Part shown: positions 5,597 to 64,000 of the stretch, one piece after another
Numbering within the stretch: the first letter of the stretch is position 1
How the letters are laid out: the number at the start of each line of letters is the position of its first letter
Assembly (NCBI GenBank): GCA_964584335.1
Contig: CAZOZN010000002.1
Location: forward strand, 200,025-264,024
Source of the DNA: an uncultured archaeon
Lineage (GTDB): Archaea > Aenigmatarchaeota > Aenigmatarchaeia > PWEA01 > JAGHBM01
DNA: 64,000 bases
Direction: 5' to 3'
The notes under the pieces: generated by a model
Seen by the model: only the letters and a program-made list of their open reading frames with translations
The model's database searches: none
What the model was told of the DNA's origin: nothing
Made by a program: the position numbers and the translations under genes

Positions 5597-6556
5597 GTGA
5601 AGGAACCTTCTGTTACAATTTTCTTGACTGTTAAGAATTCTTCAGAAACAATAAAAAAATGCGTCGATTCTCTTTTGAATCTGAATTATAGTAATTACAG
5701 CATTTACGTAACTGATGCTTATTCTACAGACGGTACTTTTGAAATTCTTAAGGAATACGAGGACAAGATAAAACTTGAGCAAGTCAGGGGCAATATGTCA
5801 AAGGCTTACAACCATATGACAAAAAGAACTAACACAGATTTTATTGCTTACACAGATGCTGATTGTGTTGTTGACAGTGATTGGTTGAGTGAGTTGGTTT
5901 CTGGTTTTGAAAAAGAAGAAGTGATAGCGGTTGCAGGCTTTTGCGGAACTCCAGACGGCTTGTCTAATTTTCAAAATGCAATAGGAAAGGAGCTTGAGCA
6001 AAGATTCAAAGATTTCCCCAAGTACATTAAAAGGGCACCCACAATGAATCTTGCTATTAGGACAGAAGTGGCAAAGAAGGTGGAGTATGACGAGAGTCTT
6101 GACGTAAGTCAGGAGACAGATTGGTGCTATAAGATAAATAAATACGGCAAGATACTTTATAATCCGAATGCAAAAGTTTTTCATTATCACAGAAGCAATA
6201 TAAGAAGTTATTTCAAACAACAGAAGAAGTACGGAAAATTTGTTGTTCTTACCTACTTGGGCAGACATAGAAAAGAAATAAAGGGAGATAACGTGTCACC
6301 CACATACATGGCCTTGCAGATACCTTTCTTCTGGGCGTCAGTTTATTTTATTTTACTTTCTCTTATAAATTTCAGTTTGATTTATTTTTCTCTGTTTTTT
6401 GTTTTTTTGATTTTTTTGATATACCTTTTTAACATTTTTAAGATTAAACCGAGATTAATTGAACTGCCTGTTTATTTTTTTATTTTTGTCTTGAGAACAG
6501 TTGCCTGGTCGATTGGTTTCGTAAGCGGACTAATTCTTTTGATTAAATCGAAATGA
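5597..6556 (+). CDS. GT2 glycosyltransferase with C-terminal transmembrane helices
   Basis: YVTDAYSTDGT and DADCVVDSDW are GT-A DxD motifs. The last ~90 aa are strongly hydrophobic (2-3 TM). Confidence 0.8.
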   Translation: MKEPSVTIFLTVKNSSETIKKCVDSLLNLNYSNYSIYVTDAYSTDGTFEILKEYEDKIKLEQVRGNMSKAYNHMTKRTNTDFIAYTDADCVVDSDWLSELVSGFEKEEVIAVAGFCGTPDGLSNFQNAIGKELEQRFKDFPKYIKRAPTMNLAIRTEVAKKVEYDESLDVSQETDWCYKINKYGKILYNPNAKVFHYHRSNIRSYFKQQKKYGKFVVLTYLGRHRKEIKGDNVSPTYMALQIPFFWASVYFILLSLINFSLIYFSLFFVFLIFLIYLFNIFKIKPRLIELPVYFFIFVLRTVAWSIGFVSGLILLIKSK

Positions 6557-10287: not shown

Positions 10288-12216
10288 ATGAGTAATTGGG
10301 TAGTTAAGGACGAAGAAAAGGATTTTTTTTGGCCGTCGGATGAGATGAAAAATAAGGCTAATGTTTCTGATTCTAATGTTTATGATGATGCACTTTCAGA
10401 CCAGATCGGGTTTTGGTCTGAAAAAGCAAAGGAGCTTGAATGGTTTAAAGAATGGGATAAAGATTATGAGGATAATCCTCCAAATTTCAAATGGTTTGTC
10501 AACGGAAAAACTAACATATGTTATAACGCGGTGGACAGGCATCTTAATGACAAGGGGGATAAAACTGCAATTATTTGGGTACCCGAAAACCAGGAAGAAA
10601 CCCCAAGAAAGATAACTTATAAAGAGCTTCATGAGGAAGTCTGCAAGTTTTCTAATGTTCTAAAAGATTTGGGTGTCGGTAAGGGAGACAGGGTAGGAAT
10701 ATACATGCCAATGGTACCCGAAGTACAGGTGGCTCTTCTTTCCTGTGCCAGACTGGGTGCTATACACACCGTTGTTTTCTCTGCATTTTCTTCCGAGTCT
10801 CTTAAGGAGAGGATGGAAGATTCGGATGCAAAAGTCTTGATAACAGCGGACGGTTATTACAGGAGAGGCAAGGAAATAGACCTAAAGAAAAAGGCAGACG
10901 AAGGAGTTGAAGGTACTGGTGTAGAAAAGGTTGTTGTTGTAAGGAGATTGAAGTCCGATGTAGATATGATGGAGGGAAGAGATTTTTTCTACGATGAAAT
11001 AATCAAAGACAGCAATTCATCATTTAATGCAGAACACATGGAAAGCAATAAAACTCTTTTCATATTATATACTTCCGGAACAACAGGCAAGCCGAAGGGG
11101 ATTGTGCATGATACCGGAGGCTACATGGTACAGGCTTACCTTACAACAAAATGGATTTTTGATTTGCAGGACGACGACGTGTTCTGGTGTACTGCAGATA
11201 TAGGATGGGTTACAGGACACACTTACTCATGTTACGGCCCTCTTCTTAACGGCGGAACAATGTTAACCTTTGAGGGTTCTCCGGATTATCCTGATTTGGG
11301 TGCCTGGTGGAAGATAATAGAGGAACATGGAGTTACGATTTTTTATACCTCACCCACCGCAGTAAGGATGTTTAAGAAAGGAGGGGTTGAATTTATAAAA
11401 AAATATGATTTGAACACCCTTAGAATTCTTGGAAGTGTGGGGGAACCTATAGACAAGGAGACGTGGCTCTGGTATTTCAAAGAAATAGGGGGAGAAAGAT
11501 GCCCCATACTTGATACATGGTGGCAAACCGAAACCGGCGGAATACTTATAACAGCACTTCCCGGTATAGGGCCGATAATACCGACTGTCGCAGGAAAACC
11601 TTTCCCAGGAGTAAGAATGGAAGTTGTTGATGAAGACGGAAAAAAGGTTGAAAAGGGGGAAGGTTTTGTAGTACAAAAGAAGCCTTTCGCTCCCGGTATG
11701 TTGAGAGGTGTTTACAAAAACCCGGAAAAATATCTCAGTACCTACTGGGAGAGGTATGGAAAAGATGTTTATTACCCCGCCGATGGCGCGATAATGATGG
11801 AGGGAGGCAACATAAAGATAACGGGCAGGTCCGACGATGTCATGAAGGTGGCCGGACACAGGATGTCCACGGCCGAGATGGAGGACGCAATAAACAGGAA
11901 CCCAAACGTGGCGGAGTGTGCGGTCGTTTCGAAACCGGATGAAATAAAGGGCGAAGTGCCTATAGCATTTGTTATATTGAAGAATAGTGAAGACCCGGAA
12001 AAAATGAGAAAGGAAATAAAGAAAACAACGGACGAGCACATAGGACCAATAGCGAGACCGAAGGAAATATACTTCGTGGAAGACGTTCCCAAAACACGTT
12101 CCGGTAAAATAATGAGAAGGATACTCAAGAGCATGCTTCGTGGTAGGGAACTGGGCAACCTCAGCACGCTAAAGAACCCGGAATCGGTAGAAAAAGTAAA
12201 GGATGTTATCGGTTAG
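10288..12216 (+). CDS. acs: Acetyl-CoA synthetase (AMP-forming acyl-CoA ligase)
   Basis: 642 aa. The AMP-binding motif is present as YTSGTTGKPKG. The hinge/core motifs are GYYRRGKEID...TGD. The C-terminal region matches ACS (PKTRSGKIMRR). Confidence 0.9.
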   Translation: MSNWVVKDEEKDFFWPSDEMKNKANVSDSNVYDDALSDQIGFWSEKAKELEWFKEWDKDYEDNPPNFKWFVNGKTNICYNAVDRHLNDKGDKTAIIWVPENQEETPRKITYKELHEEVCKFSNVLKDLGVGKGDRVGIYMPMVPEVQVALLSCARLGAIHTVVFSAFSSESLKERMEDSDAKVLITADGYYRRGKEIDLKKKADEGVEGTGVEKVVVVRRLKSDVDMMEGRDFFYDEIIKDSNSSFNAEHMESNKTLFILYTSGTTGKPKGIVHDTGGYMVQAYLTTKWIFDLQDDDVFWCTADIGWVTGHTYSCYGPLLNGGTMLTFEGSPDYPDLGAWWKIIEEHGVTIFYTSPTAVRMFKKGGVEFIKKYDLNTLRILGSVGEPIDKETWLWYFKEIGGERCPILDTWWQTETGGILITALPGIGPIIPTVAGKPFPGVRMEVVDEDGKKVEKGEGFVVQKKPFAPGMLRGVYKNPEKYLSTYWERYGKDVYYPADGAIMMEGGNIKITGRSDDVMKVAGHRMSTAEMEDAINRNPNVAECAVVSKPDEIKGEVPIAFVILKNSEDPEKMRKEIKKTTDEHIGPIARPKEIYFVEDVPKTRSGKIMRRILKSMLRGRELGNLSTLKNPESVEKVKDVIG

Positions 12217-13559
12217 TCTGATTTAGAATATTCATAGAGGACTTTCAATACCTCTACGCACCTTTTAGGGGATGTGAAGCAAGGCATCCCGCCCTCTTCC
12301 AGTTTCATTTTCAATTTTTCAGTATATTCTCCACCTGCAGATACTATTGAAGTTGTCTTTCTTCCTGATAGTTTCAATATTTTATCCACTACATCTTTTT
12401 TTAACAGGGGCGGCTGGAACAGGAAAACGAGCGCTATCATGTCAACCTTTTTGTCTCTTATTGCATCTTCGTAACAAGCCTCGTACATTTCTGAGGTAAC
12501 GTCTCCCGTAAGGTCTATTATATTTTCCATTGTTGCGTGCTTGGGTAATATTTTTCTTAGATTATTTTTGCTTTTTTTGCTGACTTTAGCAAGGCTCAAT
12601 CCGAATTTTTCTGCCCAGTCTGATGTCAGTACACCGAAACCACCAGCATCTGTTATTATTCTTAGTTTCCTGCCTTCTGGGAGTGGCTGGTTTGATATAG
12701 CTCTAGCAAGGTCAAACATCTGTTCCAAATCTTCCGCTTCAATTATTCCTGTCTGATTGAACACGCCGGAATATATTTTTGCGTTTCCTGCCAAAGCACC
12801 TGTGTGAGTTTTTGCCGATTTTCTGCCGCTTTCAGTTTTACCACCCTTGAGAACTATTACCGGCTTATTTATTTTTTTTGATACTTTGAAAAATTCTTTG
12901 CCGTCCTTCAATCCTTCTATGTATATACAAATTACTTTTGTTTCTTTATCCTCATCCAAATGTTTCATCAATTCAGTAACGTCTACATCTGTTGCATTAC
13001 CATAAGATATTGCCTTTGATATTTTGTATCCTTTCAGGGACATCCAGTCCAGTGTTATGCAAAGAGTTGCTCCGGATTGTGATATGAAACCAATGTTTCC
13101 CTTTTTTGGCCTTCCCATCCTTTCTTTTGGATTGAAGATGGTATCCAAACCGAAATAAGGGTTATAAACTCCCATGCAGTTGGGCCCTATTACTCTTAGG
13201 TTATATTTTTTGATTACTTTTTTCAATTCTTTCTCTCTTTTAATGTTTCCGGCTTCTTTGAAACCTGCTGAAACTACTATGCAGTTTTTTATTTTTTTCT
13301 CTCCGCATTCTTCAAGAACATCATAAACATATTTTGCAGGTATTGCCAGAACAGCCAGGTCCACTTTTTTGTTTATATCGCTGACTTTTCTGTAACAGTC
13401 AATGCCCATTATTTTTTTGGCCTTGGGGTTTACCGGATATATTTCGCCCTTGAAATTTTCTTTGAAATTGTTTAATATTACATTTCCTATCTTGCCTTTT
13501 TTTCTTGAAGCTCCTATTATGCAAACTGACTCCGGCCTAAAAAATTTGTCTAAGGTCAT
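12213..13559 (-). CDS. acdA: ADP-forming acetyl-CoA synthetase (NDP-forming acyl-CoA synthetase) alpha subunit
   Basis: N-terminal CoA-binding domain (SVCIIGASRKKGKIGNVILNN). A succinyl-CoA-synthetase-like flavodoxin domain contains a GPNCMGVYNP phosphohistidine-loop region. Size is 448 aa. Confidence 0.85.
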   Translation of the reverse strand: MTLDKFFRPESVCIIGASRKKGKIGNVILNNFKENFKGEIYPVNPKAKKIMGIDCYRKVSDINKKVDLAVLAIPAKYVYDVLEECGEKKIKNCIVVSAGFKEAGNIKREKELKKVIKKYNLRVIGPNCMGVYNPYFGLDTIFNPKERMGRPKKGNIGFISQSGATLCITLDWMSLKGYKISKAISYGNATDVDVTELMKHLDEDKETKVICIYIEGLKDGKEFFKVSKKINKPVIVLKGGKTESGRKSAKTHTGALAGNAKIYSGVFNQTGIIEAEDLEQMFDLARAISNQPLPEGRKLRIITDAGGFGVLTSDWAEKFGLSLAKVSKKSKNNLRKILPKHATMENIIDLTGDVTSEMYEACYEDAIRDKKVDMIALVFLFQPPLLKKDVVDKILKLSGRKTTSIVSAGGEYTEKLKMKLEEGGMPCFTSPKRCVEVLKVLYEYSKSD

Positions 13560-13638
13560 AATAATCTTTCGTGATTGTAATATAATAAATTTATGTAAAG
13601 TTTATAAAAGATGCAAATAAAATATTTTTAGTGTTCGC

Positions 13639-14619
13639 ATGAATTTGAGTGATATGGCGATTATTGCGTCTATTGTTGCTGGCCTGGCTTCTGTTCCATT
13701 TGTAGCATCAACAATTTCTAATGATTACGGTCCCATAGGCGATATAATTTTAAACATGAGTTCTGATGAAATACCCGGTGAACTTTCAAGAAAAATAAGT
13801 GATGACAGGTTCGAGCAAAATTATAAGACACCATTTGGAAGATTTAAAATAACTGTAATACCAACAGGAGTTTATCAGGAGCTTGTTAGGCCTGACAGAA
13901 AGATAATAATAGAAAATACTCCATATCATGATTCTTGGATTGTAATTACAAGCGACTACAAATTAGTTATAAATAAAACTAGTGGAATGAAGGTTGAGAG
14001 ATTTGAGAGCAAGGACGGTTTCATTGAAATAGTTGAATATATGGGCAACAGAGATGAAGTAATCAAGGGCAATGTTCAAGATTACGAAGATGCAAAGAAA
14101 ACACTAAAAGAGGAGCTGTCTAGAATTAATAAAATAAGAGAAAAATATATGAATATACCCGGCACTGAGAATATTACTTCATCGGATAAAGTAAAAATAA
14201 ATGAGGTATTGCCAAATCCGGATGATACACAAGATTGTAATGGTGATGGCAGTTTTACGGATTCTGGAGACGAGTTTATTGAATTGTATAACTATGGTGA
14301 TGAGGATATAGATTTATCCGGTTGGAAAATAAGTGATAATAATGATTTGACAATAGAAAGCGGAACTACGATAGAATCTGGTGATTTTGTTTATTTTGTT
14401 TCGGGTGACAAACAAGGCAATTATGGTAGTGAGTGGTCTGGTTCATGGCCTAATTTAAATAATGGCGGGGATGATTTGAAAATTTATAATAACAATGACT
14501 TACTCGTAGATGAAATAAATTATGCTTCCAGTACTGAAGGCAAATCATGGTCCAGAATACCTGATGGCAATGAGAGTTTTTGGGAAGTTGAACCAACACC
14601 CGGGTATACAAATAACTAG
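13639..14619 (+). CDS. Membrane-anchored/secreted lamin-tail-domain (LTD) protein
   Basis: N-terminal hydrophobic signal/anchor (IIASIVAGLASVPFVAS). The C-terminal region INEVLPNPDDTQDCNGDGSFTDSGDEFIELYNYGDEDIDLSGWKISDNN matches the LTD consensus (NE....P.....EF.ELyN.....dLsGw.l.d). Confidence 0.7.
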   Translation: MNLSDMAIIASIVAGLASVPFVASTISNDYGPIGDIILNMSSDEIPGELSRKISDDRFEQNYKTPFGRFKITVIPTGVYQELVRPDRKIIIENTPYHDSWIVITSDYKLVINKTSGMKVERFESKDGFIEIVEYMGNRDEVIKGNVQDYEDAKKTLKEELSRINKIREKYMNIPGTENITSSDKVKINEVLPNPDDTQDCNGDGSFTDSGDEFIELYNYGDEDIDLSGWKISDNNDLTIESGTTIESGDFVYFVSGDKQGNYGSEWSGSWPNLNNGGDDLKIYNNNDLLVDEINYASSTEGKSWSRIPDGNESFWEVEPTPGYTNN

Positions 14620-14854: not shown

Positions 14855-16009
14855 TTAGTATAATCCGGCTTCCTTTTTTAATTTTTCGGCAAGGTCTGTT
14901 TTTTCCCAAGTGAATTCGGGACCTTCCCTTCCGAAATGCCCGTAACAAGAAGTTTTTCTGTAAACTGGTTTCATCAGGTCAAGCTGTTTTATTATTCCGG
15001 AAGGCGTCAAATTGAAATGACTGTTTACTATTTCTGTTATTTTTTTATTCTCGATTTTTTCTGTGCCGAAAGTATCTATCATAACAGACGTTGGCTTGCG
15101 GCCTCCTATTGCATATGAAAGCTGTATTTCACATTTTTCACATATCCCGGATGCCACTAAATTTTTTGCTATATATCTTGCCATGTAGGCAGCTGACCTG
15201 TCAACCTTTGTGGGATCTTTTCCCGAAAAGGCACCGCCTCCATGTCCTCCTGTTCCGCCGTAAGTGTCCGCTATTATCTTTCTTCCAGTCATTCCTGCAT
15301 CTGCCACAGGACCGCCTATTACAAAACGTCCAGTGTTGTTTATGTAGTATTTCGTACTATCGTTGAGCCAGTTGCAGCATACAGGTTTTATTAGCTTTTC
15401 TTTTATGTCTTTCTTTATCCTTTCCGTTTTTACATCCGTGTCGTGTTGTGTGGCTACCACTACGGAAGTTATGTATTTTGGAATACCTCTTTCGTACTTT
15501 ACGCTTACCTGGGTTTTCCCGTCAGGCCTAAGGTATTTTATTTCACCGTTTTTTCTTAGCTCGGTAAGCTTTTTTGCCAATTTCTGCGCCAAAAGTATCG
15601 GCAGAGGCATAAATTCAGGTGTCTCATTTGTGGCATAACCACTCATCATTCCCTGGTCTCCCGCTCCGCTTTCCTGACCATCGACTCCCATTGCTATGTC
15701 AGCAGATTGTTCGTGTATGCTAGTGAGGACACCTACTGTGTTATAATCAAATCCGTATTCAGGTCTGTCGTATCCTATATCACTTATTACTTTTCTTGCA
15801 ATTTGGGAGTAGTTTATACTCGTGCGAGTACTTATTTCACCTGTTATTATTACGAAACCCATTCCTACCATGGCCTCGCATGCAACCCTTGATTCAGGGT
15901 CTTTCTTTATAATTTCATCCAGTATGGCATCAGATATCTGGTCACATACTTTGTCTGGATGACCTTCTGTCATAGCTTCTGAAGTGAAGACAAAATCACC
16001 TTTTTTCAT
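14855..16009 (-). CDS. metK: S-adenosylmethionine synthetase, bacterial/eukaryotic type
   Basis: [41 protein letters not shown] and the overall 384-aa architecture are diagnostic of the MetK family. This is not the archaeal MAT fold. Confidence 0.9.
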
Positions 16010-46120: not shown

Positions 46121-46208
46121 GCTGAGGTGGCCGAGTGGTTTAAGGCGCTGGCCTGCTAAGCTAGTGGGGCACGTCCCCGCGAGGGTTCGAATCCCTCCCT
46201 CAGCGCCA
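46121..46208 (+). tRNA. tRNA-Ser (anticodon GCT), type II, intron-less, CCA encoded
   Basis: Acceptor GCTGAGG/CCTCAGC. Anticodon loop CT-GCT-AA. Long variable arm. T-arm GAGGGTTCGAATCCCTC. Discriminator G followed by CCA. Confidence 0.85.
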
Positions 46209-46255: not shown

Positions 46256-46387
46256 GGGCTGGTAGTCTAGTGGTTATGACGCTGCCCTTACAAACCTTTT
46301 ACTCAGCGAAAAAGGTTTAATAAAATTGGCTGGATTAAAGTTTGTGAAAGGCAGAGGTCGGGAGTTCGACTCTCCCCCGGCCCACCA
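46256..46387 (+). tRNA. tRNA-Val (anticodon TAC) with a ~55-nt intron at the canonical 37/38 position, CCA encoded
   Basis: Acceptor GGGCTGG/CCGGCCC. Anticodon stem CTGCC...GGCAG with loop CTTACAA. The intron ACCTTTT...GTGAA contains an internal hairpin. T-arm GGGAGTTCGACTCTCCC. Confidence 0.7.
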
Positions 46388-48983: not shown

Positions 48984-49964
48984 ATGGATTCGAAAACATT
49001 AAGAAAGCACAGTCAAAAACTTCTAAAACTTAAACAGGAAATACAGAAAGGAATAATAGGACAGGAGTATGTAATAGATTCCGTAATAAAATGTTTGATG
49101 TGTAATGGTCATGTTCTTTTGGAAGGAGTTCCAGGCTTGGCAAAGACCTTACTTGTAATGCTTTTGGCGAGGTCTGTTTCTGATAGTGTTTTCAAGAGAA
49201 TACAATTCACCCCTGATTTGTTGCCTTCTGATATAACAGGCACGACCATGTATATAGAGAGAGAAGGCACGTTCAAGGCACAGAAAGGTCCAATTTTTGC
49301 AAACTTCGTTCTTGCCGACGAAATAAACCGTACAACACCAAAAGTACAGAGCTCAATGCTTCAGGCAATGCAGGAGAGGGAAGTTACCATAGGCAAGGAG
49401 ACTTTTTCTCTTCCTAAGCCGTTTATAGTTCTTGCTACCGAGAACCCTCTCGAACAGGCAGGTACTTATCCATTAGCTGTTGCTCAAACAGACAGGTTCC
49501 TTTTTAAGATTTTTGTTGATTATCCCAAGGAAGATGAGGAAATTAAAATTATAGATATAAATTCAGTTGTTAAAGGCATGAAAGATTACAAGACCAAGCC
49601 AGTAGTTACACCTAAAGATATTCAAAAAGTACAAGAAATAGTAAGGAAAATTAAAATAAGCGACAGTGTTAAGGATTACATACTTAATATAGTCGAATCT
49701 ACAAGAGTTCCTGAGAAATATGGTCTCGAGTTTCACAAGTTTATAGATTATGGTGGAAGTCCTAGAGCTTCTATTTATCTTGCTCTTTCAGGTAAGGCAA
49801 GTGCTCTCATGAACGGAAGGGATTATGTAATACCAGATGATATAAGGGAAGTGGCACCAAACGTACTCAGACATAGAATAATAATGAACTATGAAGGCAA
49901 GGCAAGAAACATTTCTACTGACGATATAATAAAAGAGATTATAGATACTGTTCCGGTGGTTTAG
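48984..49964 (+). CDS. MoxR-family AAA+ ATPase (copy 1)
   Basis: Walker A GVPGLAKT. Walker B/sensor region VLADEINRTTPKVQSSMLQAMQEREVTIG. Size of 326 aa is typical of MoxR/MRP. Confidence 0.9.
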   Translation: MDSKTLRKHSQKLLKLKQEIQKGIIGQEYVIDSVIKCLMCNGHVLLEGVPGLAKTLLVMLLARSVSDSVFKRIQFTPDLLPSDITGTTMYIEREGTFKAQKGPIFANFVLADEINRTTPKVQSSMLQAMQEREVTIGKETFSLPKPFIVLATENPLEQAGTYPLAVAQTDRFLFKIFVDYPKEDEEIKIIDINSVVKGMKDYKTKPVVTPKDIQKVQEIVRKIKISDSVKDYILNIVESTRVPEKYGLEFHKFIDYGGSPRASIYLALSGKASALMNGRDYVIPDDIREVAPNVLRHRIIMNYEGKARNISTDDIIKEIIDTVPVV

Positions 49965-50954
49965 ATGGTTGAAGGAAATATAGAAAAGAAAATAGATTTT
50001 TATAGTGATAAGATTTCCAAAATAGAAGATGAGATACACAAGTGTGTTTACGGACAGCAAGATACGGTCTCTTCGATTATAAAATGCTTGATATGTAATG
50101 GTCATGTTCTTATAGAGGGGGTTCCCGGAATAGCTAAAACTTTAACTGTGGTTGTTCTTTCAAATACAATAAAAGGAGCTAAATACAACAGGATACAATT
50201 CACCCCTGATTTGTTGCCTTCTGATATAGTAGGTACTCTCATATACAGAAAAGGAAGAGGGTTCGAGGTTCAGAAAGGTCCTGTTTTTGGAAATATTATA
50301 GCTGCTGATGAGATAAACAGAGCCCCTTCCAAAGTACAGAGCGCTATGCTTCAGGCAATGCAGGAGAGGGAAGTTACCATAGGCAAGGAAACATATCCTC
50401 TTCCAAAACCCTTCATGGTTCTGGCCACGCAAAATCCACTGGAGACCAAGGGGGTTTATCCCTTACCCGAGGCTCAGATAGACAGATTTTTGTTTAAGAT
50501 ACAAGTTGATTACCCCAAAAGGGAACATGAAAAGAAGGTTATTGATATAAACGCTGAAGTAAAAAACATGGAAGATTATAAAATAAAAAAAGTGCTTTCT
50601 ATTAAAGATATAGTAGAGATGCAAAAGTTAGTACCCAGAATAAAATGCTCCGAAGAAATAAAGAAATACATAGTAAAGCTGGTTAATGCTACGAGGTATC
50701 CGGATAAATATGGAATAGAGTTCGGCAGGTATATAAAGTGGGGTGCATCACCCAGAGCTACTATATATCTTAGCTTGGCAGGCAAGGCAAATGCCTTGAT
50801 GAAAGGAAGAAGTTATGTTACCCCGGATGATATAAGGGATATAGCACATCACGTTCTTAGGCACAGAATGATTTTAAATTACGAAGGAAAAGCTGAAAAG
50901 ATAAAAACTGAAGATTTGGTCGATGAGGTTATAAATAGTGTTCCAGTGATTTGA
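49965..50954 (+). CDS. MoxR-family AAA+ ATPase (copy 2, tandem paralog)
   Basis: GVPGIAKT and IAADEINRAPSKVQSAMLQAMQEREVTIG are present. Several blocks are nucleotide-identical to copy 1 (e.g. TACAATTCACCCCTGATTTGTTGCCTTCTGATATA). The start codon abuts the copy-1 stop. Confidence 0.9.
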   Translation: MVEGNIEKKIDFYSDKISKIEDEIHKCVYGQQDTVSSIIKCLICNGHVLIEGVPGIAKTLTVVVLSNTIKGAKYNRIQFTPDLLPSDIVGTLIYRKGRGFEVQKGPVFGNIIAADEINRAPSKVQSAMLQAMQEREVTIGKETYPLPKPFMVLATQNPLETKGVYPLPEAQIDRFLFKIQVDYPKREHEKKVIDINAEVKNMEDYKIKKVLSIKDIVEMQKLVPRIKCSEEIKKYIVKLVNATRYPDKYGIEFGRYIKWGASPRATIYLSLAGKANALMKGRSYVTPDDIRDIAHHVLRHRMILNYEGKAEKIKTEDLVDEVINSVPVI

Positions 50955-55199: not shown

Positions 55200-55970
55200 C
55201 TATCTCCTTTTTCTGTATAAAATATAAATTATCAGACTGACAATTGCTAAAATTATTATGTAGTATAAAATACCGGATTCGTCTTCTTCTCCTCCCAAAG
55301 AAAAAAATCCTGTGGGAAGTTCTCTTCTTTCTTCGATATTACTTTCTTCTTCATCATTTTCTTTTACTTCTATATTCCAACTATTCCCAGTATCATTAGA
55401 TTCGTAACTTTCTCTTTGAACTTCCTGATAAAACTCTTCCAATGTTTCCTCGTACTCTTCCTCGGTCCTTGCATTTATGTTGCCGGGAACTGTTATTGCG
55501 AAACTGTATTCGTGAACGGATTTCATCCTCTCTTTTGTTCCTCCGAAGTTGGTGTCTTCAGATGAAGCTGTCGCTACTATTTTTATTTTATGGAAATTTT
55601 TTGTTATCTCGCTTATGTTATCCGGCACTTTTATTATGACTTGAACAGGAACACATTTTGCATAATTTTCTCCAAGAACTACCCATTCTTCTTCACCCAT
55701 GGGATTTACGACTTTTTTATCGCTCTCTAACAAGAAATATCTTGGATTTATGCTAGTAATTATTTCGTCGCTCCCTGAGTTTTTCAAGTCGACAACCAAT
55801 GGAGTTTTTCCATAGTTAAAGAATGATAATTTTACCTTTTTAATATCACCAGGGACCATTGTAAACCTTTGGTTATGTCCCACAGAACCAAAACTGAGCT
55901 GGTCTGCGTAAGATGTTTTTGTCAATAAAAGGAATATTATTAAAAAATATACCAGATGCTTTTTTTTCAT
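55200..55970 (-). CDS. Secreted protein with acidic stalk and C-terminal TM anchor plus basic tail
   Basis: Signal peptide MKKKHLVYFLIIFLLLTKTSYA. C-terminus ...ELPTGFFSLGGEEDESGILYYIIILAIVSLIIYILYRKRR. Its stop is 1 nt from the next gene's start. Confidence 0.6.
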   Translation of the reverse strand: MKKKHLVYFLIIFLLLTKTSYADQLSFGSVGHNQRFTMVPGDIKKVKLSFFNYGKTPLVVDLKNSGSDEIITSINPRYFLLESDKKVVNPMGEEEWVVLGENYAKCVPVQVIIKVPDNISEITKNFHKIKIVATASSEDTNFGGTKERMKSVHEYSFAITVPGNINARTEEEYEETLEEFYQEVQRESYESNDTGNSWNIEVKENDEEESNIEERRELPTGFFSLGGEEDESGILYYIIILAIVSLIIYILYRKRR

Positions 55971-56006: not shown

Positions 56007-59000
56007 TTACCAAGAGGCGTTAGCCATTATTGTTATTACTCCTGAATATTCACCGAAATAAACCGGATAAGAGTCTATCCAGAAGTACATGTTGTATATT
56101 ATTCCAGACTGGGGGTTTGATTGTATTGTTTTGTACGTAGTGCTGAGGTTTTCAGATGTCGGATATCCGCTACAACCCTTACACCAGCTTATGTTTCCAA
56201 CTCCCAGATTAGAATACCCAGATGAAAGATGTGTTCCTTTTATGTAAATACCGTCACCATCATTTGAGTTTTTAGCTAATCCAATCTGATAAGGATTTCC
56301 TGGTGCTGCCAATCCTTGCTGGTTGGGGTTTTCATTTCCCCAGTCTATACTGTTAGTTGATACATTCAGCACCAGTACTTTACCTATCCTTATCAGAGAG
56401 TTGGTTGTGTCGTTAGAGGGGTTATAGAATATAACATCAATGTTGTAGTAATCATCAAGATTGCCTGTTGCATTTACTATCCATAACATGTTGCAGCTTT
56501 CATCCTGGTTTAGGTTGCATGTTTGCGGGTTTGCGTTTAAAGTGTAGAAAGGAGTCCCGCTTGCTGGGATGTTTGTGTTGGGTTCTCCCGAGGTTGAATT
56601 GTATCTTACTGCTCCTTCTATGTTACCGCAGTTGTCATCTTTACATGTTACTGTTGCATTTACAGTGAAGTTTCTGTACAAAGGAACTATTGTATTATCC
56701 GGAGGCGTGTTTAGTTTTACCACCAACCTTCCCGCATATTCTACCTGAGTTATATTGACTGTAGAATTGTCTTCATAGTTACTGGAGGAGTTGTAGTAAA
56801 GAGAATTTTGGTTGGTTATGTTACATTTTGTATAATATATTCCATTTGAATATATACTCTTGTTTACGTACCAGTTAGCCGTAGCTCTTCCTGACGGGGA
56901 TGACTCAGTAGTATTTACAAACCACTCGTGTGTGTTGTTGTATACATAGAAACTTACATTATAATCTTCTATTCCAGAGTCTGTTTCATTGTCTTTTACG
57001 TCACATTGTAGCTGTATGGTTTCTGTTTGGTTATATTTTGAACCAGAGGGTGGAGAAAACCATTCAATTTTTGAGTAACCTCTTACGAATATGTCTCTTT
57101 CATCAAAACCATTCTGGTAATTGTTCTTGTAAGTTGTTATATTTATTTTGTTTATTCCAACGCTCATGTCATTTGGAACAATCCAAGTGGAATTTTCCTG
57201 GTTTGATATTTCTCCCGGTTCGCTTTTCCATGACACGGAGTCAGGGATTATATTAATTCCATTCTCGTCTTCGGTCGTAGAGTTGAGTTTAACGGTTTCT
57301 CCTCTCCAGTATTCACTTTCATTTATCGGATATTGTATTGAAGTGTTTAAAATTCCCTGAAGTGTAATTGTACCGGAATCATCCGATATTATACTTTTCT
57401 CGTAATAAAGTGAGGGCTCATCTCCTATTTCACAATGGAGTGTCTCGTCGCCAACAGGATAACCGGAAAAATCATAATCTATGCTTGCATGGCCCGAAGA
57501 GTTTGTGTCTGATGAACCCAACTGGTCCCAAGTGGAGTTGTAGAAAACTACAGTATAATCTTCAATGGGCTGACCATTGTTGTAATCTTTTACCCTGGCT
57601 ACCAGTTTTAAACTTCCCCTATTTTTATATCCCGTGGGTGATATCCATTCAACTTCCGAGTATCCCTTAACAGTAAATTCTATGTATGGAAGGGAGTCAT
57701 TCATATTTCCAAGTGAATCGTTTGCATAGGCTTTTATAACGTGTTTTCCAACTAACCAGTCGTCTCCTATTCCTATGCTTATGTTTGTCCAGTTTTGGGT
57801 GTAGGGAGAGTCTGCACCATTCTCTATCATAGAAGATGAGGTTGAGTTGTACTCCCAGTATGCATAATCAGGCATATCATCCCATAGAGCGTAAGCCTTT
57901 ATGGCTTCATCCTTGTATACATTAGTTTCATTTATGTTATAATTGTTATTTACTATTCTGGGTGCCTGTGTATCTTCTCCAGGAACAGCCGTATAAAGAG
58001 TGTCCGATAAAACGTAGTTTTCAGAAGCGTTGTAATAACTGGGTAAATTATCAGTTATATTGCATGTTATTAATTCATTCCCGCTGCTCTGGTCTGTATA
58101 ATTCCAGTAAGCCCAGCCATCACTTCCCGTTGTGTTTGTTCCTAGTTCGTGTGTTTGGTTGTAGAATTTCACTGGATAGTCTTCTATTGATTCCGAAGAA
58201 TTAGAATCCTCCACTTTACATCCTATTATACTTGAGTTACCCACGTAAATTGTATCAGGGTTGAGTTCTATTTCTGTAACAGAAGCCCATCCCCAAGCTT
58301 CAAAATCGAGAATGCCAGTCACGTTGTAGTTTCCGAAAAAGTCCTCCCCGAAAATTCTCCATTGAACCGAACCGAGCTCGGAATCAGCGGGATAACTAAA
58401 GCTGAAGTTGGACCATGACTCGTTTCCTGACATTGATAGGGGGCTGTGCAGGCTCGAGTTAAGAAATACACCTGTATCATTTGATTCCAATACAGCCTGA
58501 GACAGCCGGTAGTTATCGGTCCAGTAAGCAGAAATCTTAAGGCTTTCTCCCTTGTGAACCACTTCCTTGCTGCTTTCGGTGCTGTACCACTTCGGCTTTT
58601 CATTTTCTCTTGTTGTCAGCTCCAGGGTTCTTTGATAGCTTGTTTCAGAGGCGTTATAATAACTTGAAGGCTTGTCAGTTATGTTGCATGTTATTGTTTC
58701 CGTACCGAGTGAGTTGTCTGTCCAAGTAAAGTTAGACCATCCTGTTTGGTTGGTTTTGCCTACATACATGAGGTCCGTGGAATTGTAGAAGCTTATGTTG
58801 TAATCTTCCAAATAATAATTTTCGTCATCCCTTACTCTGCAGTAGAAAGTTACCTGCTCTCCTTGGTTTATTGTTTTGGATGACGGGCTTGAATCTGTAA
58901 CAGAAGCTATTCCGTAAACTTCAAATTCCATGTAAGTTAGGGTTCCATTTATATTGTCATTCAAATCATAACCGTAAATCTTTGCGACATGTTTTCCAGT

Positions 59001-62000
59001 ATCCCAGCTGCTGTTAGTCTCCATGGTAAAGTTTGTCCATGTTCCCGAAGGGCTTAAACTCTCGTTCTTTAATGGGTTCGTTGAATTAAACTCGACCTTT
59101 GATGTACCCATTTCTTCTGTCCAGTTTGCGTATATCTTTATGTTTTGACCCCTCAAAACTGATTCCGGTTCAATTCCATATATCTCGTTTTTAAGTTTTG
59201 GCGGTTGGTCTTCTGAAAGTATTATGTTAAAGGTGTCTGTATATGTCTTTATGAAATCTGTATCATTTATTATGAACTTGACAGCCTTTTCTTCCTGCGA
59301 AGTTGTGTTTATTTCCAACACATAATAAAAAGTCGCATTGGAACCCGGGGAAACTTTACCTCCCTGACCGGTATTCCATGATACATTTCCCTGATTAAAA
59401 GAACCTCCAGTAAATTCGGTACCATTATTATACCAAATATCGCTTTCTGATATTTTCCAGTTATTTAGGAACACATGAACTATATCAGAACCGCTTATAT
59501 CCCAGTCTTCTGTGCTTTGCATACTATTCTCCAAGTAAAATTCAATCCTGTATTTTTCACCCGTGTAAAGATTGAAAGTCTTGTTCAAACCATAATCAAT
59601 TAGATTGCTTGTGTTTGTATGTGTGTTGCTTGCTTCGGTTACATCATACACTGTTATATTCTTCAGGCTAACCCTTGAATCTGGTTGGGTTATGTTGAAT
59701 TCATATGTTCCTATAATGTAACTACCGTTTGTATTTTCAAGTATGTTGCCGTAAGGGTCTGTGAAACCCACCCAAGCTCTATATGTATCATTATCGCACC
59801 TTTTTGTATTCCAACTATCCCAAATGTTTCTTAGTTCCAGATAGTTGTAAGAACTAACATTTCTTCTTATCGATTCGTTTGTATCGTCCCATACAACTTC
59901 AAAGTCACCCCATCCTGTTCCTGTTTTCTTCTGAACTTTCATTAATAGGTAACCTGATGTATTTAGCTCCAATTGGTTAACAAAACTTGGAGACTGATAA
60001 TACTCCCCGCTAAGAGATGTGGATATTCCGGATGCTGTTGATTCTATTTGGCCGTAGCTAGTCGAACCAACTCCCGAATCAGTGTAATACATATAGTAAG
60101 TTTTTTCCGAATTCGGGTTAATAGTAACATTGAAAACGACTGTTGCGTTTTCGTAATAGTTTCCATCGTATTGAGCTTCCTTTATAAAGGAGTGAATAGA
60201 ACTGCCTGTTGAGTTGTAAATTCTTATTGAGTTGTTGTAGGCGTGTTCTTCTGCGAAGTTTACAAAAATTTCTGCAGGTTCTTTGTTTCTTCCAACACCA
60301 TTTTCTTCGGTTACGTTTATTTCTTTTCTGTATTTCCATGAAGGGTTGAACCAATTGTCCAATATATCCTCCAGCATTACATTCTCATTAGGGCCATATT
60401 CTTTTTCCTCGGTTTCAATATCTATAAGAGCAGATGATAAAACCTCAAAACTGAAAGTGCTGGAATTCCCTATGTTGTTTAAAGTATCATTAGCCCAAAC
60501 ATAATAGTAATAATTTCCTATTTCCCATGTATCTTTGAATGAACCCCTGAAGAAATTTGTTTCAGATTCTCCGTATGATATGAGAGAATCCGTTCCTGAC
60601 ATGAAAGTGGAATTTATCCAAGAGTCTGTTCTTGTTATATTGGAGAACTGTATTTCATCTATTTTACCTTCAAAGTAGCTTGTATCATCGAAACCCCCGC
60701 CTGTCTGACTTTCTGTTGCAGAGAACGCCATATATTGACTGCCTGGTGCACTTCTAGTACATTCGTAAATGTCTTTAAGTTCTCCGTCTAAATAGGCCTT
60801 TTCGTGTGAGCCGTTGTAAACCAAAGTTAAATGGTACCATTTGTTTTGGTTTATTGTTCCGAAAATAAGGTCGTCATTACAATTCCATATGTTTCCTCTT
60901 AGCTCTTTGTCACTGTTAAGACCTATCTTAGTGTAGTGATAACCAGAGTTTATTGTCTTCTGGCCCAATTCCGATACTATAACACCAGAATCTTCGGCAT
61001 AAACCCATAGGGAAAGTGTTTCTGTGCTCGGTGATGAAGTAAGCTGGTCGCTTATTAAGTAGTCATCGTTACCGTCAAAACTGTCTGCCCCGTCTATTTT
61101 ACCTGTCTTTTGCATGTTTGTATCCGGCGTTACATATTCCGTCAAATTGTTACCCCTTGAAGTAGAATCTGTGGCATTACCCGTGTTTTGGGAGAGATGC
61201 CATATTCCTATATAATCAGTATCCCAGACACCGCTGCTGTTCTGTCTGTCCTCCGCATTGCTGTTGCCGTAGTAAAGCCAGAAGGTTGTGTTTGAAGTGG
61301 ATGAAACAGCAGGCAGCCTTACCCAGACAAAGGAATCACCCGATTCATTCCACTTTTCTATCTCGTAGTCAAGCAAAGTATCATTCAAGATAAACCTTAC
61401 GTCCTCCCCGTTATCCTGTGTATTCGAGTAATCTATTCTAGAGGAATTAAGTTTAACCATTACCGGGAAATCAGACAGGTCTTCCTTTATCTTCCCCGAG
61501 TCTATTAAAAGTGGCATCCTATGATTCCAGGAAGAGTTCCAAAAGTTTTCAAGGCTTACATTTTCCATTTCAATCCAGTATTCATATCCTTCGGGACTCT
61601 CTATGTGGCTTCTTACTTTGTCTAGGCCATCCTCGTCTTCCACTTTAGATGATATGTTTATTTTCTGGCCATAACCTATTTGTTCCTGCGAAACTTCTGT
61701 TTCCGATATCTGCGGATTATCATGTATTGATATGGTCGTATAATTGTAAGAGTAAAATGTGAAGTAAGGGTGTCCTGTCTGTGAATGGGTTACGTTTATT
61801 GTATAGTTTCCTATATTCTTTGTATCGGGTATCTGATATTCTATTGAACCGTATCCTGAGCTATTGGTCTGAGAAAATCCTATATTCTCACCGTCCATTA
61901 TAAAGTTTATAAATTCTCCCTCAACGGGGTTTTGTGTGTCGTTATACAACAAGACCGAGGATATTTCTATAGTGTCTCCCGTTACCGGATTGTAGTTGCT

Positions 62001-64000
62001 TGATTTTGTTTCTGTAACAAGGGTACCGGTCCATACTTCTATGTCTCTTTTTCTTAAATCTTCATAGCCGTTTGAAGATTCTGATTCTATTATTACTTCA
62101 TTTGGCCCAAGGGAAGACGATGAATTGACTTCTATTGTTATATTGTTCCATTTTATTTCTCCTGGTGTTATATTACCAACAAATTTTTTCATACTACCAC
62201 TTGTGTTTATCCAACCGTTCGGGAGCGTATAATTTAGCCATACGTTTGTTATGTTTGTGCTTGAAAGTGTGTTATTTACATATGTTGTAATATTTACAGT
62301 GTTTGTTCTGGTAATGTTTTGAGGATAGTTGTATTCTATTATTTCTAATCCTACTGACCTTACTTTAAGTATCTGGCTTTCTTGAGTGTACCAGTTTCTA
62401 TTTTCGGAACCCGGGTTAATGTAACTCAGGTTTGCAGTTATGTTGTAGTCTCCCACCGGAGTAGAACTGTTTGTTTGTATTACAAAACTGGCTGTCCATG
62501 AATTTCCTCCTTTCTCATCCCCAAAATCTAGAAGGTAGTCTTTTCCTGACTGGTATGTTGCGTTTATCCATCCTATAGAACGGTCTTTATCTGATACTCT
62601 AACCTCATCTATGTCTCCAAGGAAATACTCGTTTACTGCATTACATGATGCTCCTATTGATACGTAATTCTGCCAGTTGAAGTTTGATTCGTTTTTGCAG
62701 TTGCTTGCCTTTTGTGCTCCATCTATGTATATCTTTTGTCCCGATAGACTGTTTACAGTATGCACTACCTTATGCCATTCACCATCCGCAACGTTTTCAC
62801 CCGAAGTGCACAGGGTCTCAGAACATCCGAATTCTGTTGGCCATGTCCTTACGCATATATCTCCCCCGCTTATGTATACATGCCTGTCATGTCCGTTTTG
62901 ACAAGAACCCGTGTTACCATGAGCATGGAATATGCCTCTGTTGTTGTTTGTTGTCTTGAACCATATTTCTGTTGTGAAATTTGTTAAAGGCATTACTAAA
63001 GGAACTTCTACGTGGTCGTTACTTCCATCGAAATTATTTGCACCATCAAATATTCCTTTTTGGTCTAAATAGGAGTCTGACATATCCATAGCCTCACCAT
63101 TTTTACTATTTCCAGAAGAATCGTAATGGTCATTGTAACTTCCGCTGGTCCTTGAAGTTTCTTCAAGATGATGAACCATCATATAGTTTTCATCCCAGAC
63201 ACCGCTGCTGTTCTGTCTGTCCTCCGCATTGCTGTTGCCGTAGTAAAGCCAGAAGGTTGTGTTTGAAGTGGATGAAACAGCAGGCAGCCTTACCCAGACA
63301 AAGGAATCACCCGATTCATTCCACTTTTCTATCTCGTAGTCAAGCAAAGTATCATTCAAGATAAACCTTACGTCCTCCCCGTTATCCTGTGTATTCGAGT
63401 AATCTATTCTAGAGGAATTAAGTTTAACCATTACCGGGAAATCAGACAGGTCTTCCTTTATCTTCCCCGAGTCTATTCTAATCTCTCTTTTTTTGTCCCA
63501 AGATTCGTTCCACCAGCTGGTTGACTCAAGAATATTATTTACTTCGCATGTTCCGCCATATTGTCCTGTCAAATTACATGAGCAATTAAATCCCAAAGAG
63601 TCCGGACAATTTATCGTGACATTAACATCTGTTATATTTTCCGACCAGGGATTAGTTATTTTGAAGCTGTATTCTGAGCTGTTTCCTTTGTATATTTCAT
63701 CCGGCGTTAGCGATGATGTTAGCTGTTCTTTTAAATTGTGTACTGTAAATGTCTCTGATGTGATAAAAGTGGTGTTCGCGTTTTTACCCATTATTGTTAT
63801 GTTCCAGTTAAATGTGTAAGTTCCTGTTGTAGCATCTTTAGGTATTCTGTAACCGTTTGAGGAATTATCGAACATCTTGGTGCAGAATTGGTTTTTTTCT
63901 ATATTGCTGCAATTTTTGGTTTCATTCGGACCCCAGCTGACTTTCTCTCCGTCTTTAAGTATGTTGAGTGTCACATTTACGTTTACTGCTTCTGACTCAA
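56007..64000 (-). CDS. Giant (more than 2655 aa, N-terminus outside window) cell-surface protein with repeated DUF2341/LamG-like (concanavalin-type jelly-roll) and Ig-like beta-sandwich modules
   Basis: The reading frame stays open from 56007 to the window end. The ORF-track M at 63974 is an internal GTG. It contains two identical 96-aa DUF2341-like modules (DSGKIKEDLSDFPVMVKLNSSRIDYSNTQDNGEDVRFILND...FWLYYGNSNAEDRQNSSGVWD). LamG-like segments include FDGSNDHVEVP...TTEIWFKT. There are hundreds of N-x-S/T sequons and no C-terminal anchor. Confidence 0.8.
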   Translation of the reverse strand, partial: ESEAVNVNVTLNILKDGEKVSWGPNETKNCSNIEKNQFCTKMFDNSSNGYRIPKDATTGTYTFNWNITIMGKNANTTFITSETFTVHNLKEQLTSSLTPDEIYKGNSSEYSFKITNPWSENITDVNVTINCPDSLGFNCSCNLTGQYGGTCEVNNILESTSWWNESWDKKREIRIDSGKIKEDLSDFPVMVKLNSSRIDYSNTQDNGEDVRFILNDTLLDYEIEKWNESGDSFVWVRLPAVSSTSNTTFWLYYGNSNAEDRQNSSGVWDENYMMVHHLEETSRTSGSYNDHYDSSGNSKNGEAMDMSDSYLDQKGIFDGANNFDGSNDHVEVPLVMPLTNFTTEIWFKTTNNNRGIFHAHGNTGSCQNGHDRHVYISGGDICVRTWPTEFGCSETLCTSGENVADGEWHKVVHTVNSLSGQKIYIDGAQKASNCKNESNFNWQNYVSIGASCNAVNEYFLGDIDEVRVSDKDRSIGWINATYQSGKDYLLDFGDEKGGNSWTASFVIQTNSSTPVGDYNITANLSYINPGSENRNWYTQESQILKVRSVGLEIIEYNYPQNITRTNTVNITTYVNNTLSSTNITNVWLNYTLPNGWINTSGSMKKFVGNITPGEIKWNNITIEVNSSSSLGPNEVIIESESSNGYEDLRKRDIEVWTGTLVTETKSSNYNPVTGDTIEISSVLLYNDTQNPVEGEFINFIMDGENIGFSQTNSSGYGSIEYQIPDTKNIGNYTINVTHSQTGHPYFTFYSYNYTTISIHDNPQISETEVSQEQIGYGQKINISSKVEDEDGLDKVRSHIESPEGYEYWIEMENVSLENFWNSSWNHRMPLLIDSGKIKEDLSDFPVMVKLNSSRIDYSNTQDNGEDVRFILNDTLLDYEIEKWNESGDSFVWVRLPAVSSTSNTTFWLYYGNSNAEDRQNSSGVWDTDYIGIWHLSQNTGNATDSTSRGNNLTEYVTPDTNMQKTGKIDGADSFDGNDDYLISDQLTSSPSTETLSLWVYAEDSGVIVSELGQKTINSGYHYTKIGLNSDKELRGNIWNCNDDLIFGTINQNKWYHLTLVYNGSHEKAYLDGELKDIYECTRSAPGSQYMAFSATESQTGGGFDDTSYFEGKIDEIQFSNITRTDSWINSTFMSGTDSLISYGESETNFFRGSFKDTWEIGNYYYYVWANDTLNNIGNSSTFSFEVLSSALIDIETEEKEYGPNENVMLEDILDNWFNPSWKYRKEINVTEENGVGRNKEPAEIFVNFAEEHAYNNSIRIYNSTGSSIHSFIKEAQYDGNYYENATVVFNVTINPNSEKTYYMYYTDSGVGSTSYGQIESTASGISTSLSGEYYQSPSFVNQLELNTSGYLLMKVQKKTGTGWGDFEVVWDDTNESIRRNVSSYNYLELRNIWDSWNTKRCDNDTYRAWVGFTDPYGNILENTNGSYIIGTYEFNITQPDSRVSLKNITVYDVTEASNTHTNTSNLIDYGLNKTFNLYTGEKYRIEFYLENSMQSTEDWDISGSDIVHVFLNNWKISESDIWYNNGTEFTGGSFNQGNVSWNTGQGGKVSPGSNATFYYVLEINTTSQEEKAVKFIINDTDFIKTYTDTFNIILSEDQPPKLKNEIYGIEPESVLRGQNIKIYANWTEEMGTSKVEFNSTNPLKNESLSPSGTWTNFTMETNSSWDTGKHVAKIYGYDLNDNINGTLTYMEFEVYGIASVTDSSPSSKTINQGEQVTFYCRVRDDENYYLEDYNISFYNSTDLMYVGKTNQTGWSNFTWTDNSLGTETITCNITDKPSSYYNASETSYQRTLELTTRENEKPKWYSTESSKEVVHKGESLKISAYWTDNYRLSQAVLESNDTGVFLNSSLHSPLSMSGNESWSNFSFSYPADSELGSVQWRIFGEDFFGNYNVTGILDFEAWGWASVTEIELNPDTIYVGNSSIIGCKVEDSNSSESIEDYPVKFYNQTHELGTNTTGSDGWAYWNYTDQSSGNELITCNITDNLPSYYNASENYVLSDTLYTAVPGEDTQAPRIVNNNYNINETNVYKDEAIKAYALWDDMPDYAYWEYNSTSSSMIENGADSPYTQNWTNISIGIGDDWLVGKHVIKAYANDSLGNMNDSLPYIEFTVKGYSEVEWISPTGYKNRGSLKLVARVKDYNNGQPIEDYTVVFYNSTWDQLGSSDTNSSGHASIDYDFSGYPVGDETLHCEIGDEPSLYYEKSIISDDSGTITLQGILNTSIQYPINESEYWRGETVKLNSTTEDENGINIIPDSVSWKSEPGEISNQENSTWIVPNDMSVGINKINITTYKNNYQNGFDERDIFVRGYSKIEWFSPPSGSKYNQTETIQLQCDVKDNETDSGIEDYNVSFYVYNNTHEWFVNTTESSPSGRATANWYVNKSIYSNGIYYTKCNITNQNSLYYNSSSNYEDNSTVNITQVEYAGRLVVKLNTPPDNTIVPLYRNFTVNATVTCKDDNCGNIEGAVRYNSTSGEPNTNIPASGTPFYTLNANPQTCNLNQDESCNMLWIVNATGNLDDYYNIDVIFYNPSNDTTNSLIRIGKVLVLNVSTNSIDWGNENPNQQGLAAPGNPYQIGLAKNSNDGDGIYIKGTHLSSGYSNLGVGNISWCKGCSGYPTSENLSTTYKTIQSNPQSGIIYNMYFWIDSYPVYFGEYSGVITIMANASW
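61222..61507. repeat. Perfect 286-nt direct repeat, copy A (inside the giant surface-protein gene)
   Basis: Nucleotide-identical to 63192-63477 over its whole length, checked base by base in the printed sequence (offset 1970 nt). Confidence 0.9.
63192..63477. repeat. Perfect 286-nt direct repeat, copy B
   Basis: Identical to 61222-61507. It encodes the same 96-aa DUF2341-like module. Confidence 0.9.

Follow-up and report, generated by a model that had tools for sequence, protein, structure and literature searches.

Two identical 286-nt tracts in diverged DUF2341-lectin cassettes of a giant archaeal surface-protein gene: probable recent intragenic copying

Two stretches of one giant gene share the same 286 nucleotides, letter for letter, inside sequence that has otherwise diverged. 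How did this patch arise, and is it as old as the domains that contain it? We addressed this question in a 64,000-nt stretch of contig CAZOZN010000002.1 (assembly GCA_964584335.1, positions 200,025 to 264,024), hereafter the window, which comes from a DPANN archaeon, probably of the Aenigmatarchaeota. The gene lies at the end of the window on the minus strand, and its predicted product contains two cassettes, each formed by a DUF2341 domain followed by a laminin G-like (LamG) lectin domain, whose borders were set with hidden Markov models (HMMs) built in this analysis from retrieved matches. The features on which the argument rests are the following.

56007..64000, minus strand: giant predicted secreted or cell-surface protein gene, 3' part (2663 codons plus stop) with the 5' end beyond the window; continuous frame, Pfam matches and syntenic homologues
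63192..63477, minus strand: identical tract copy A (N-proximal), core of DUF2341(A), codons 175-269; exact match to copy B
61221..61506, minus strand: identical tract copy B, core of DUF2341(B), codons 832-926; exact match to copy A
62511..63530, minus strand: cassette A, DUF2341(A) at aa 162-275 plus LamG/ConA-like lectin (A) at aa 276-496; own HMMs
60558..61544, minus strand: cassette B, DUF2341(B) at aa 819-931 plus LamG(B) at aa 933-1147; own HMMs

The tract copies at 61221-61506 and 63192-63477 are identical at 286/286 nt, and their offset of 1971 nt corresponds to 657 codons, so both are read in the same frame of the same minus-strand gene. Each comprises 95 whole codons (I175-D269 and I832-D926 in the visible translation) and one third-position base. 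The original prediction, made from the sequence alone, had placed the repeat at 61222-61507 and 63192-63477. The 286-nt repeat is real, but these literal strings have an offset of 1970 and are not identical, the first copy having been set one base too high; likewise, the encoded module does have the same protein sequence in both copies, but it is 95 and not 96 amino acids long. Both edges of the tract are sharp, with identity dropping from 30/30 to about 5-12/30 within one 30-nt window, so that the sequence just outside is at random level and the flanks are diverged, as had been proposed. Across the window, just one other exact repeat reaches 31 nt, a match of some 31-33 nt that links two MoxR paralogues (near 49200/50193). 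A chance origin for the 286-nt identity is excluded.

The module had also been called DUF2341-like, and Pfam agrees: PF10102 (DUF2341) matches three stretches of the protein with 91.9 bits (cut-off 23.4; E = 3.5e-26), and PF13385 (Laminin_G_3) scores 101.1 bits against 27.6 over two. The tract copies occupy the equivalent site of homologous cassettes, with a W-x-N-x-S-W-x-x-R motif upstream and (D/E)xxY..HL downstream, and cassettes A and B can be aligned over their full length. In the LamG halves identity is down to about 25%, less than the 35-38% that each of them has with LamG domains in unrelated proteins. When identical residues are compared between A and B, the same codon is used in 92/93 cases in the DUF2341 domain vs 17/51 in LamG, the latter close to chance. 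The idea of a very recent in-frame duplication of the domain is thus not supported, because the LamG halves have drifted to about 25% identity and share codons at chance level; only the 286-nt core of DUF2341 is identical. The cassettes are instead ancient, either as paralogues or as modules acquired independently of each other, and only the patch of about 286 nt is young. We also discarded a tandem duplication of the whole 1971-nt unit: no second copy of segY, the segment of beta-sandwich domains between the cassettes, follows cassette B, and beyond the tract the sequences are no more alike than by chance.

Our preferred explanation, to which we give a probability of about 0.6, is a recent non-reciprocal copying event (gene conversion or template switch) between the old paralogous cassettes, whose mechanism and direction we infer. 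Some 286-300 nt of one DUF2341 core would have overwritten the equivalent stretch of the other cassette, 1971 nt away in the same gene, by short-tract gene conversion or by a double template switch with end points within the conserved motifs that bracket the core. Such copying would have wiped out every difference, synonymous ones included, while leaving the flanks as they were. Selection on the protein cannot account for the identity, because synonymous sites are identical right beside saturated flanks. Once formed, the perfect direct repeats would be a substrate for RadA-type homologous recombination, and recombination between them would cause the in-frame loss or doubling of exactly 657 codons (LamG-A plus segY), with a length or head variant of the adhesin as the outcome.

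Several observations weigh against this explanation. The flanks lack the long homology with which classical homologous recombination would start. The tract also has an unusual composition: its GC content is 0.44 vs 0.39 for the gene, and its GC content at third codon positions (GC3) is 0.54 vs a gene mean of 0.38 (standard deviation 0.058 in 96-codon windows; z of about 2.8), among the highest windows of the gene. GC-biased conversion is one possible reason, but another is a third, foreign or out-of-window donor, as opposed to copying between A and B. In two of three other multi-cassette proteins, the excess of same codons became alike for DUF2341 and LamG after correcting for the codon usage of each domain, a control that is partly circular in these proteins (P0004, P0022 and P0037; here and below, P and L numbers are our handles for proteins and loci). 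The N-terminus is beyond the window, and secretion and anchoring are deduced from homologues only. Finally, the independent Logan assemblies that cover this locus reach only base 58300, outside the interval 58301-64000 that holds both copies, and the perfect identity could be in part a product of assembly.

The latter is the rival that we take most seriously, although we consider it rather unlikely: an assembly or polishing artefact, in which two similar cores were forced to one consensus by De Bruijn bubble-popping or multi-mapped polishing, or in which a repeat node was misthreaded, making the copy number or the linkage wrong. The contig belongs to a metagenome-assembled genome (MAG), and exact repeats beyond the common k-mer length are classic trouble spots for assemblers. 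Both Logan contigs (L006, from SRR15425351, and L007, from SRR15425353) break at base 58300, indicating that assembly of the gene is difficult; a 36-mer taken from the tract found no exact match in JGI metagenomes, the public contigs searched with it; and two other MAG loci, described below, contain equally perfect intragenic repeats. Even so, each of four distinct unique flanks would have to be connected with the tract by real reads, which means that two highly similar copies must exist, and the assembled order yields two intact, correctly registered cassettes in an uninterrupted frame of 2663 codons. Moreover, a 562-nt repeat in L001, one of those MAG loci, retains 2-3 mismatches, so assemblers do not always homogenise such sequences, and both independent Logan assemblies match the window at 100% identity in their overlaps of 7.9 and 5.2 kb, which include the gene and its neighbours.

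Improbable, in our opinion, is a recent duplication of a cassette, or of its core and junctions, followed by a swap of the LamG and upstream linker of one copy by recombination with another DUF2341-LamG gene, either of the same genome or acquired by horizontal transfer. It would fit with cassette A being lineage-specific (see below), with LamG(A) and LamG(B) each resembling foreign LamG domains more than one another, and with the wide and modular occurrence of DUF2341-LamG cassettes in DPANN archaea, bacteria of the candidate phyla radiation (CPR) and other archaea. Nevertheless, it needs at least three events vs one conversion, and the divergence on both sides of the tract demands two replacements with breakpoints exactly at its edges; besides, no close donor was found for cassette A, whose best match among 5.8 billion protein clusters is 38% identical.

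The template and variable repeats (TR/VR) of diversity-generating retroelements (DGRs) differ at adenines. It is hardly credible that the identity is kept for a function in DNA or RNA, be it a DGR repeat pair, a structured RNA or programmed-variation cassettes, despite the atypical GC3 of the tract and the known targeting of surface proteins by DGRs in DPANN and CPR organisms (PMC5758913), since there are 0 mismatches in 286 nt and hence no adenine-specific differences, the approximately 40 window open reading frames (ORFs) scanned contain no domain of a reverse transcriptase, integrase or transposase, the only Rfam matches in the window are two tRNAs, and the tract folds no better than shuffled sequences (z = +1.1 and +1.2 for the two strands). 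A DGR, an embedded RNA and a mobile element were accordingly rejected as candidates, as there is neither a reverse transcriptase or transposase among the ORFs scanned, nor an Rfam match at the tract, nor excess RNA structure.

How did a gene with two old cassettes come to be? The minus-strand frame is free of stops from base 63998 to the stop codon at 56007-56009, with 2663 codons visible. As was originally proposed, the ORF must run past the window end, because there is no stop up to base 63998 and homologues have 3226 to 3970 aa or more. The closest whole-protein matches are P0001 (3970 aa) and P0002 (at least 3226 aa), both at about 42% identity, and a scan of genome contigs retrieved only three CPR-bacterial loci, at 44-48%. 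Outside the cassettes, the visible gene and the two genes that follow it were divided as follows.

63531..63998, minus strand: segX, aa 1-156; directly abuts segY in every homologue
61554..62492, minus strand: segY, beta-sandwich domains between the cassettes, aa 503-815; NPCBM_assoc/NEW3-like at 27.5 bits, weak MG2
60060..60353, minus strand: degenerate third DUF2341 (C), aa 1216-1313; own HMM, E = 1.1e-9
56739..59201, minus strand: stalk of diverged immunoglobulin-like (Ig-like; Big_1/Big_3_5/MG-like) repeats, aa about 1600-2420; Big_1 at 40.2 bits vs a cut-off of 34.9
56010..56996, minus strand: family-defining C-terminal region, 329 aa, three beta-sandwiches, ending in ...TIMANASW; cluster matches and AlphaFold2 model
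55200..55970, minus strand: downstream co-oriented gene, 256 aa, N-terminal signal-like segment and C-terminal transmembrane anchor; syntenic, 55% identity in L005 and 27% in L004
52937..55198, minus strand: downstream co-oriented gene, 753 aa, sequon-rich, signal-like N-terminus, Pro/Glu-rich linker and hydrophobic C-terminus; 60% identity in L005 and 35% in L004

Loci L004 and L005 have the same gene order as the window, with the giant gene, a gene of about 250 aa and another of about 750 aa, and then convergent genes for an M50B-like protein, a DUF58/VWA protein, two MoxR and a PALP protein; the neighbouring genes are 45-80% identical between the window and L005. This conserved order shows that L004 and L005 are true orthologous loci. 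Homologues of segX and segY are adjacent in five out of five proteins (P0001, P0002, P0003, P0011, from Altiarchaeales, and P0027); segX is 37-48% identical to these five, and segY is colinear with its homologues, at 32-39% identity. In a MAFFT alignment, cassette A (aa 157-495) corresponds to a single clean gap of 339 aa in P0001, P0002 and P0003, and our own HMMs detected no LamG in any of the five. Cassette A is thus a lineage-specific insertion, given the clean gap in the orthologues and the adjacency of segX and segY in all five homologues, of which two are confirmed to be syntenic. The comparison further indicates that about one more DUF2341+LamG unit was added after segY. The homologues have a single DUF2341, and the two alignments disagree on its counterpart: with BLAST, the linker before it is colinear in P0001 and P0002 in such a way that it faces DUF2341(C), whereas MAFFT pairs it with B, so that either DUF2341(B) or DUF2341(C) may be its positional equivalent. 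Apart from the cassette insertions, the homologues are colinear over both junctions, and this gives no support to the possibility, raised with the original prediction, that two separate genes had been joined by error.

The locus L004:1175-20421 (JGI sample 3300068096) contains two tandem giant paralogues, of 2446 and 3970 aa, which overlap by 7 nt and have common N- and C-terminal regions. They also contain nucleotide patches that are 86-91% identical (1334-1558/8629-8853 and 12103-12367/15094-15358).

Within the gene of the window there is a second block of high GC3 (about 0.5-0.6), at aa 1724-1895 or thereabouts (58300-58830), followed by a drop to about 0.25-0.33 at 58300, exactly the base at which both Logan contigs end. 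In the area of 58300, no k-mer of at least 17 nt recurs within the window. Possibly this block is another tract that was repeated or converted, with its partner upstream of the window or in a paralogue.

What kind of protein bears these cassettes? The giant protein contains 127 N-x-S/T sequons, compared to 57 ± 6.6 expected from composition-preserving shuffles, with a density of 48 per 1000 aa vs 1-9 per 1000 aa in the cytoplasmic proteins of the window, and its homologue P0001 starts with an N-terminal signal peptide of Sec type, not class III. Besides DUF2341 and Laminin_G_3, Pfam detects Big_1 and NPCBM_assoc beta-sandwich domains. The AlphaFold2 (AF2) model of cassette A (predicted local distance difference test, pLDDT, 89; predicted template modelling score, pTM, 0.90) consists of a beta-sandwich packed on a jelly-roll, which Foldseek relates (E of about 6e-9) to lectin-like domains of AbnA arabinanase, tetanus and botulinum neurotoxins (TeNT/BoNT Hc), PTX3, trans-sialidase and the PilC minor pilin. 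Profile searches against the PDB matched cassette A to 4qvs ('S-layer domain-containing protein'; E = 5.8e-21), via its LamG part only, and also to 5hon. Membership in both DUF2341 and the Laminin_G_3/ConA-like lectins is therefore backed by scores above the gathering thresholds and, for the latter, by the jelly-roll fold in the model. The excess of sequons, the signal peptide of P0001 and the lectin fold of the cassettes all agree with the giant surface or adhesin-like class to which the protein had been assigned. In all, it would be a fibrillar-adhesin-like, N-glycosylated, all-beta protein, with an Ig-like stalk and the two DUF2341+LamG cassettes as lectin-like heads, for which we infer a role in adhesion or at the cell surface.

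Archaeal S-layer proteins are abundant and lattice-forming, and most end in a transmembrane segment, PGF-CTERM or another anchor; the giant protein is linked to them solely by the match of its LamG part to 4qvs. No C-terminal hydrophobic segment or PGF-CTERM was found in the giant protein, and its C-terminal region of 329 aa has neither a Pfam match nor a sequence match in the PDB. This region matches 357 cluster representatives at E ≤ 1e-3; in nearly all of the 150 matches listed, from proteins of approximately 140-5300 aa, it ends no more than about 10 residues from the C-terminus. It is 45-49% identical to P0268 and P0001 over all 329 aa, and a C-terminal TIMANASW/Y motif is present in a handful of members read, including P0001, P0002 and the product of the upstream giant gene of L004. 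Its AF2 model (pLDDT 88) consists of three Ig-like sandwiches, for which Foldseek retrieved only generic Ig-like arrays. By virtue of this region and of its synteny with the membrane-anchored genes of about 250 and 750 aa, the giant protein belongs to an unnamed TIMANASW C-terminal family, in which the C-terminal region may be an anchoring or sorting module.

Is homogenisation of DUF2341 a general process? Among 56 multi-cassette proteins, within-protein identity is 58% for DUF2341 vs 36% for LamG, and between proteins it is 41% vs 29%. Likewise, 45 cassettes have their nearest DUF2341 in the same protein and their nearest LamG elsewhere, while 15 show the reverse. The raw fraction of same codons is also higher for DUF2341 than for LamG in P0004, P0022 and P0037; we do not claim, however, a general conversion specific to DUF2341, because the codon-usage control mentioned above removed the excess in two of these three proteins. 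Exact intragenic repeats with sharp edges and flanks at random level do occur in two other loci with giant DUF2341 genes. One, of 467 nt (11199-11665 / 13476-13942), extends over two FN3-like domains in L001, from a Saccharibacteria MAG, and the other, of 339 nt (13136-13474 / 14084-14422), is in L002, from a Peribacteria MAG. These repeats can mean that the phenomenon is frequent in genes of this kind, or else that the artefact is. The GC3 of the tracts at other loci is mixed (z from -0.5 to +2.1). It is conceivable, although we regard it as doubtful, that recurrent, domain-restricted and possibly GC-biased conversion keeps a 'constant' DUF2341 scaffold uniform while the LamG heads diversify, with the repeats acting as a switch for in-frame recombination and the block at 58300 being another tract. 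If true, a DPANN archaeon would possess an adhesin system that varies in phase or length as lectin heads are deleted, duplicated or swapped.

The rest of the window supports the assignment of the host. It contains archaeal chromosome markers, such as an intron-containing tRNA, CDC48, archaeal topoisomerase I, seryl-tRNA synthetase (SerRS), phosphoenolpyruvate (PEP) synthase and a RadB-like Rad51/KaiC ATPase, and the best named relatives of the topoisomerase I are in the Aenigmatarchaeota, a DPANN phylum. The tRNA at 46256-46384 is 129 nt long with full coverage of the Rfam model, which implies an intron of about 58 nt; it was missed by ARAGORN in bacterial mode, and adjoins a tRNA-Ser(GCT) at 46121-46208. 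Neither the 256-aa nor the 753-aa protein encoded downstream of the giant gene has a Pfam match, and the latter contains 33 sequons per 1000 aa. At the other end of the window, a glycosylation cluster (150-6556) encodes glycosyltransferases of families GT4/GT1, AglB/STT3 (1213-3381), two GT2 and a B12-binding radical S-adenosylmethionine protein (4152-5594), and agrees with the heavy N-glycosylation predicted for the giant protein.

Other genes of the window deserve mention. Two tandem paralogues of MoxR-type AAA+ ATPases, with nucleotide patches that are 77-79% identical, precede genes for a DUF58/VWA protein and a membrane protein of M50B-like type (48984-50954); the pair is kept in L005, and L004 has a single MoxR fused to an N-terminal region resembling helix-turn-helix/sigma70_r4 domains. 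The S-adenosylmethionine synthetase at 14855-16009 is of the bacterial/eukaryotic MetK type (PF00438/PF02772/PF02773) in an otherwise archaeal genome, and may have been acquired horizontally. At 13639-14619 there is a gene for a 326-aa protein with a Lamin Tail Domain (PF00932, E = 6.6e-20), a domain of Ig-like fold that is frequent in secreted prokaryotic proteins.

Identical DNA repeats in surface-protein genes are well known in bacteria and yeasts, and such genes undergo concerted evolution of their intragenic repeats as well as antigenic variation by gene conversion, of which pilE/pilS is the type case. The present gene has in common with the latter a sharp tract of perfect identity within diverged paralogous surface-protein sequence; nevertheless, conversion of the pilE/pilS type diversifies a variable head, whereas here a conserved scaffold domain is homogenised. 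We know of no silent donor cassettes for this gene, nor of any study of the conversion mechanism in DPANN archaea.

The closest functional analogue is found in Periscope proteins and other fibrillar adhesins (SasG, Aap, Rib and Sgo_0707), whose DNA-identical repeats are proposed to recombine within the gene and so to vary its length in frame (PMC8201768). They resemble our protein in being surface proteins with a stalk, a lectin-like head and DNA-identical repeats, but they contain long tandem arrays of whole identical domains, instead of two dispersed sub-domain patches in diverged modules of an archaeal protein. Indeed, the defining tandem stalk array of identical whole domains is missing here, where there are two copies of 95 codons and the Ig-like stalk repeats are 33-48% identical to each other. 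The consequence would nevertheless be a common one, because recombination between the tracts would shorten or lengthen the gene by exactly 657 codons without changing the frame.

DUF2341 has been noted in giant proteins of Patescibacteria (PMC11809585), and we found archaeal and CPR giants with several DUF2341+Laminin_G_3 cassettes (P0004, P0005 and P0037) in the same domain order and size range, in which the DUF2341 copies are, likewise, more alike within a protein than the LamG copies. These giants have tandem arrays of 3 to 10 cassettes; here there are two, set in a scaffold of segX, segY and Ig-like domains ending in TIMANASW, and the other sampled members of this scaffold family are without LamG. 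A DUF2341 domain is also found in type IV pilus-associated adhesins, such as the PilY-like arCOG03508 of the Methanococcus epd locus (PMC4858521), and a DUF2341 gene is needed for transformation in M. maripaludis (PMC10133366). The domain and a presumed adhesive role at the tip or surface are common to these adhesins and to our protein, and two of the homologues with cassette arrays, P0004 and P0028, bear the archaeal pilin-type N-terminus PF07790. No type IV pilus genes were found in the 56 kb downstream of our gene, with no pilus ATPase, platform or prepilin peptidase domains in the window genes at 1-56 kb, and the signal of homologue P0001 is of Sec type; the N-terminus of our protein and the genes upstream of it lie beyond the window.

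Large secreted LamG surface proteins have been proposed to mediate cell-cell contact in the 'ARMAN' archaeon Mia14, also of the DPANN (PMC5498576). A DPANN host with LamG surface proteins is thus common to both cases, although Mia14 belongs to another phylum, its proteins have another architecture, and the report on them describes no identical tract within a gene. DPANN archaea live attached to other cells, and giant surface proteins are prime candidates for host contact; to our knowledge, next to nothing has been established about how the genes for such proteins evolve in these archaea. The novelty of our observations is modest, and lies in the DPANN host, in the presence of the cassettes in a different scaffold family and in the sub-domain size of the conversion patch; the patch, apparently copied, is real but fairly ordinary for repeat-rich surface-protein genes. 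A practical consequence is that perfect intragenic repeats in giant genes from MAGs need validation at the read level before domain counts are trusted. For the evolution of these proteins, the locus offers a clean, datable snapshot, in which a conserved scaffold received lectin cassettes and a single patch of these was later homogenised, and it predicts a simple in-frame deletion or duplication polymorphism of 657 codons.

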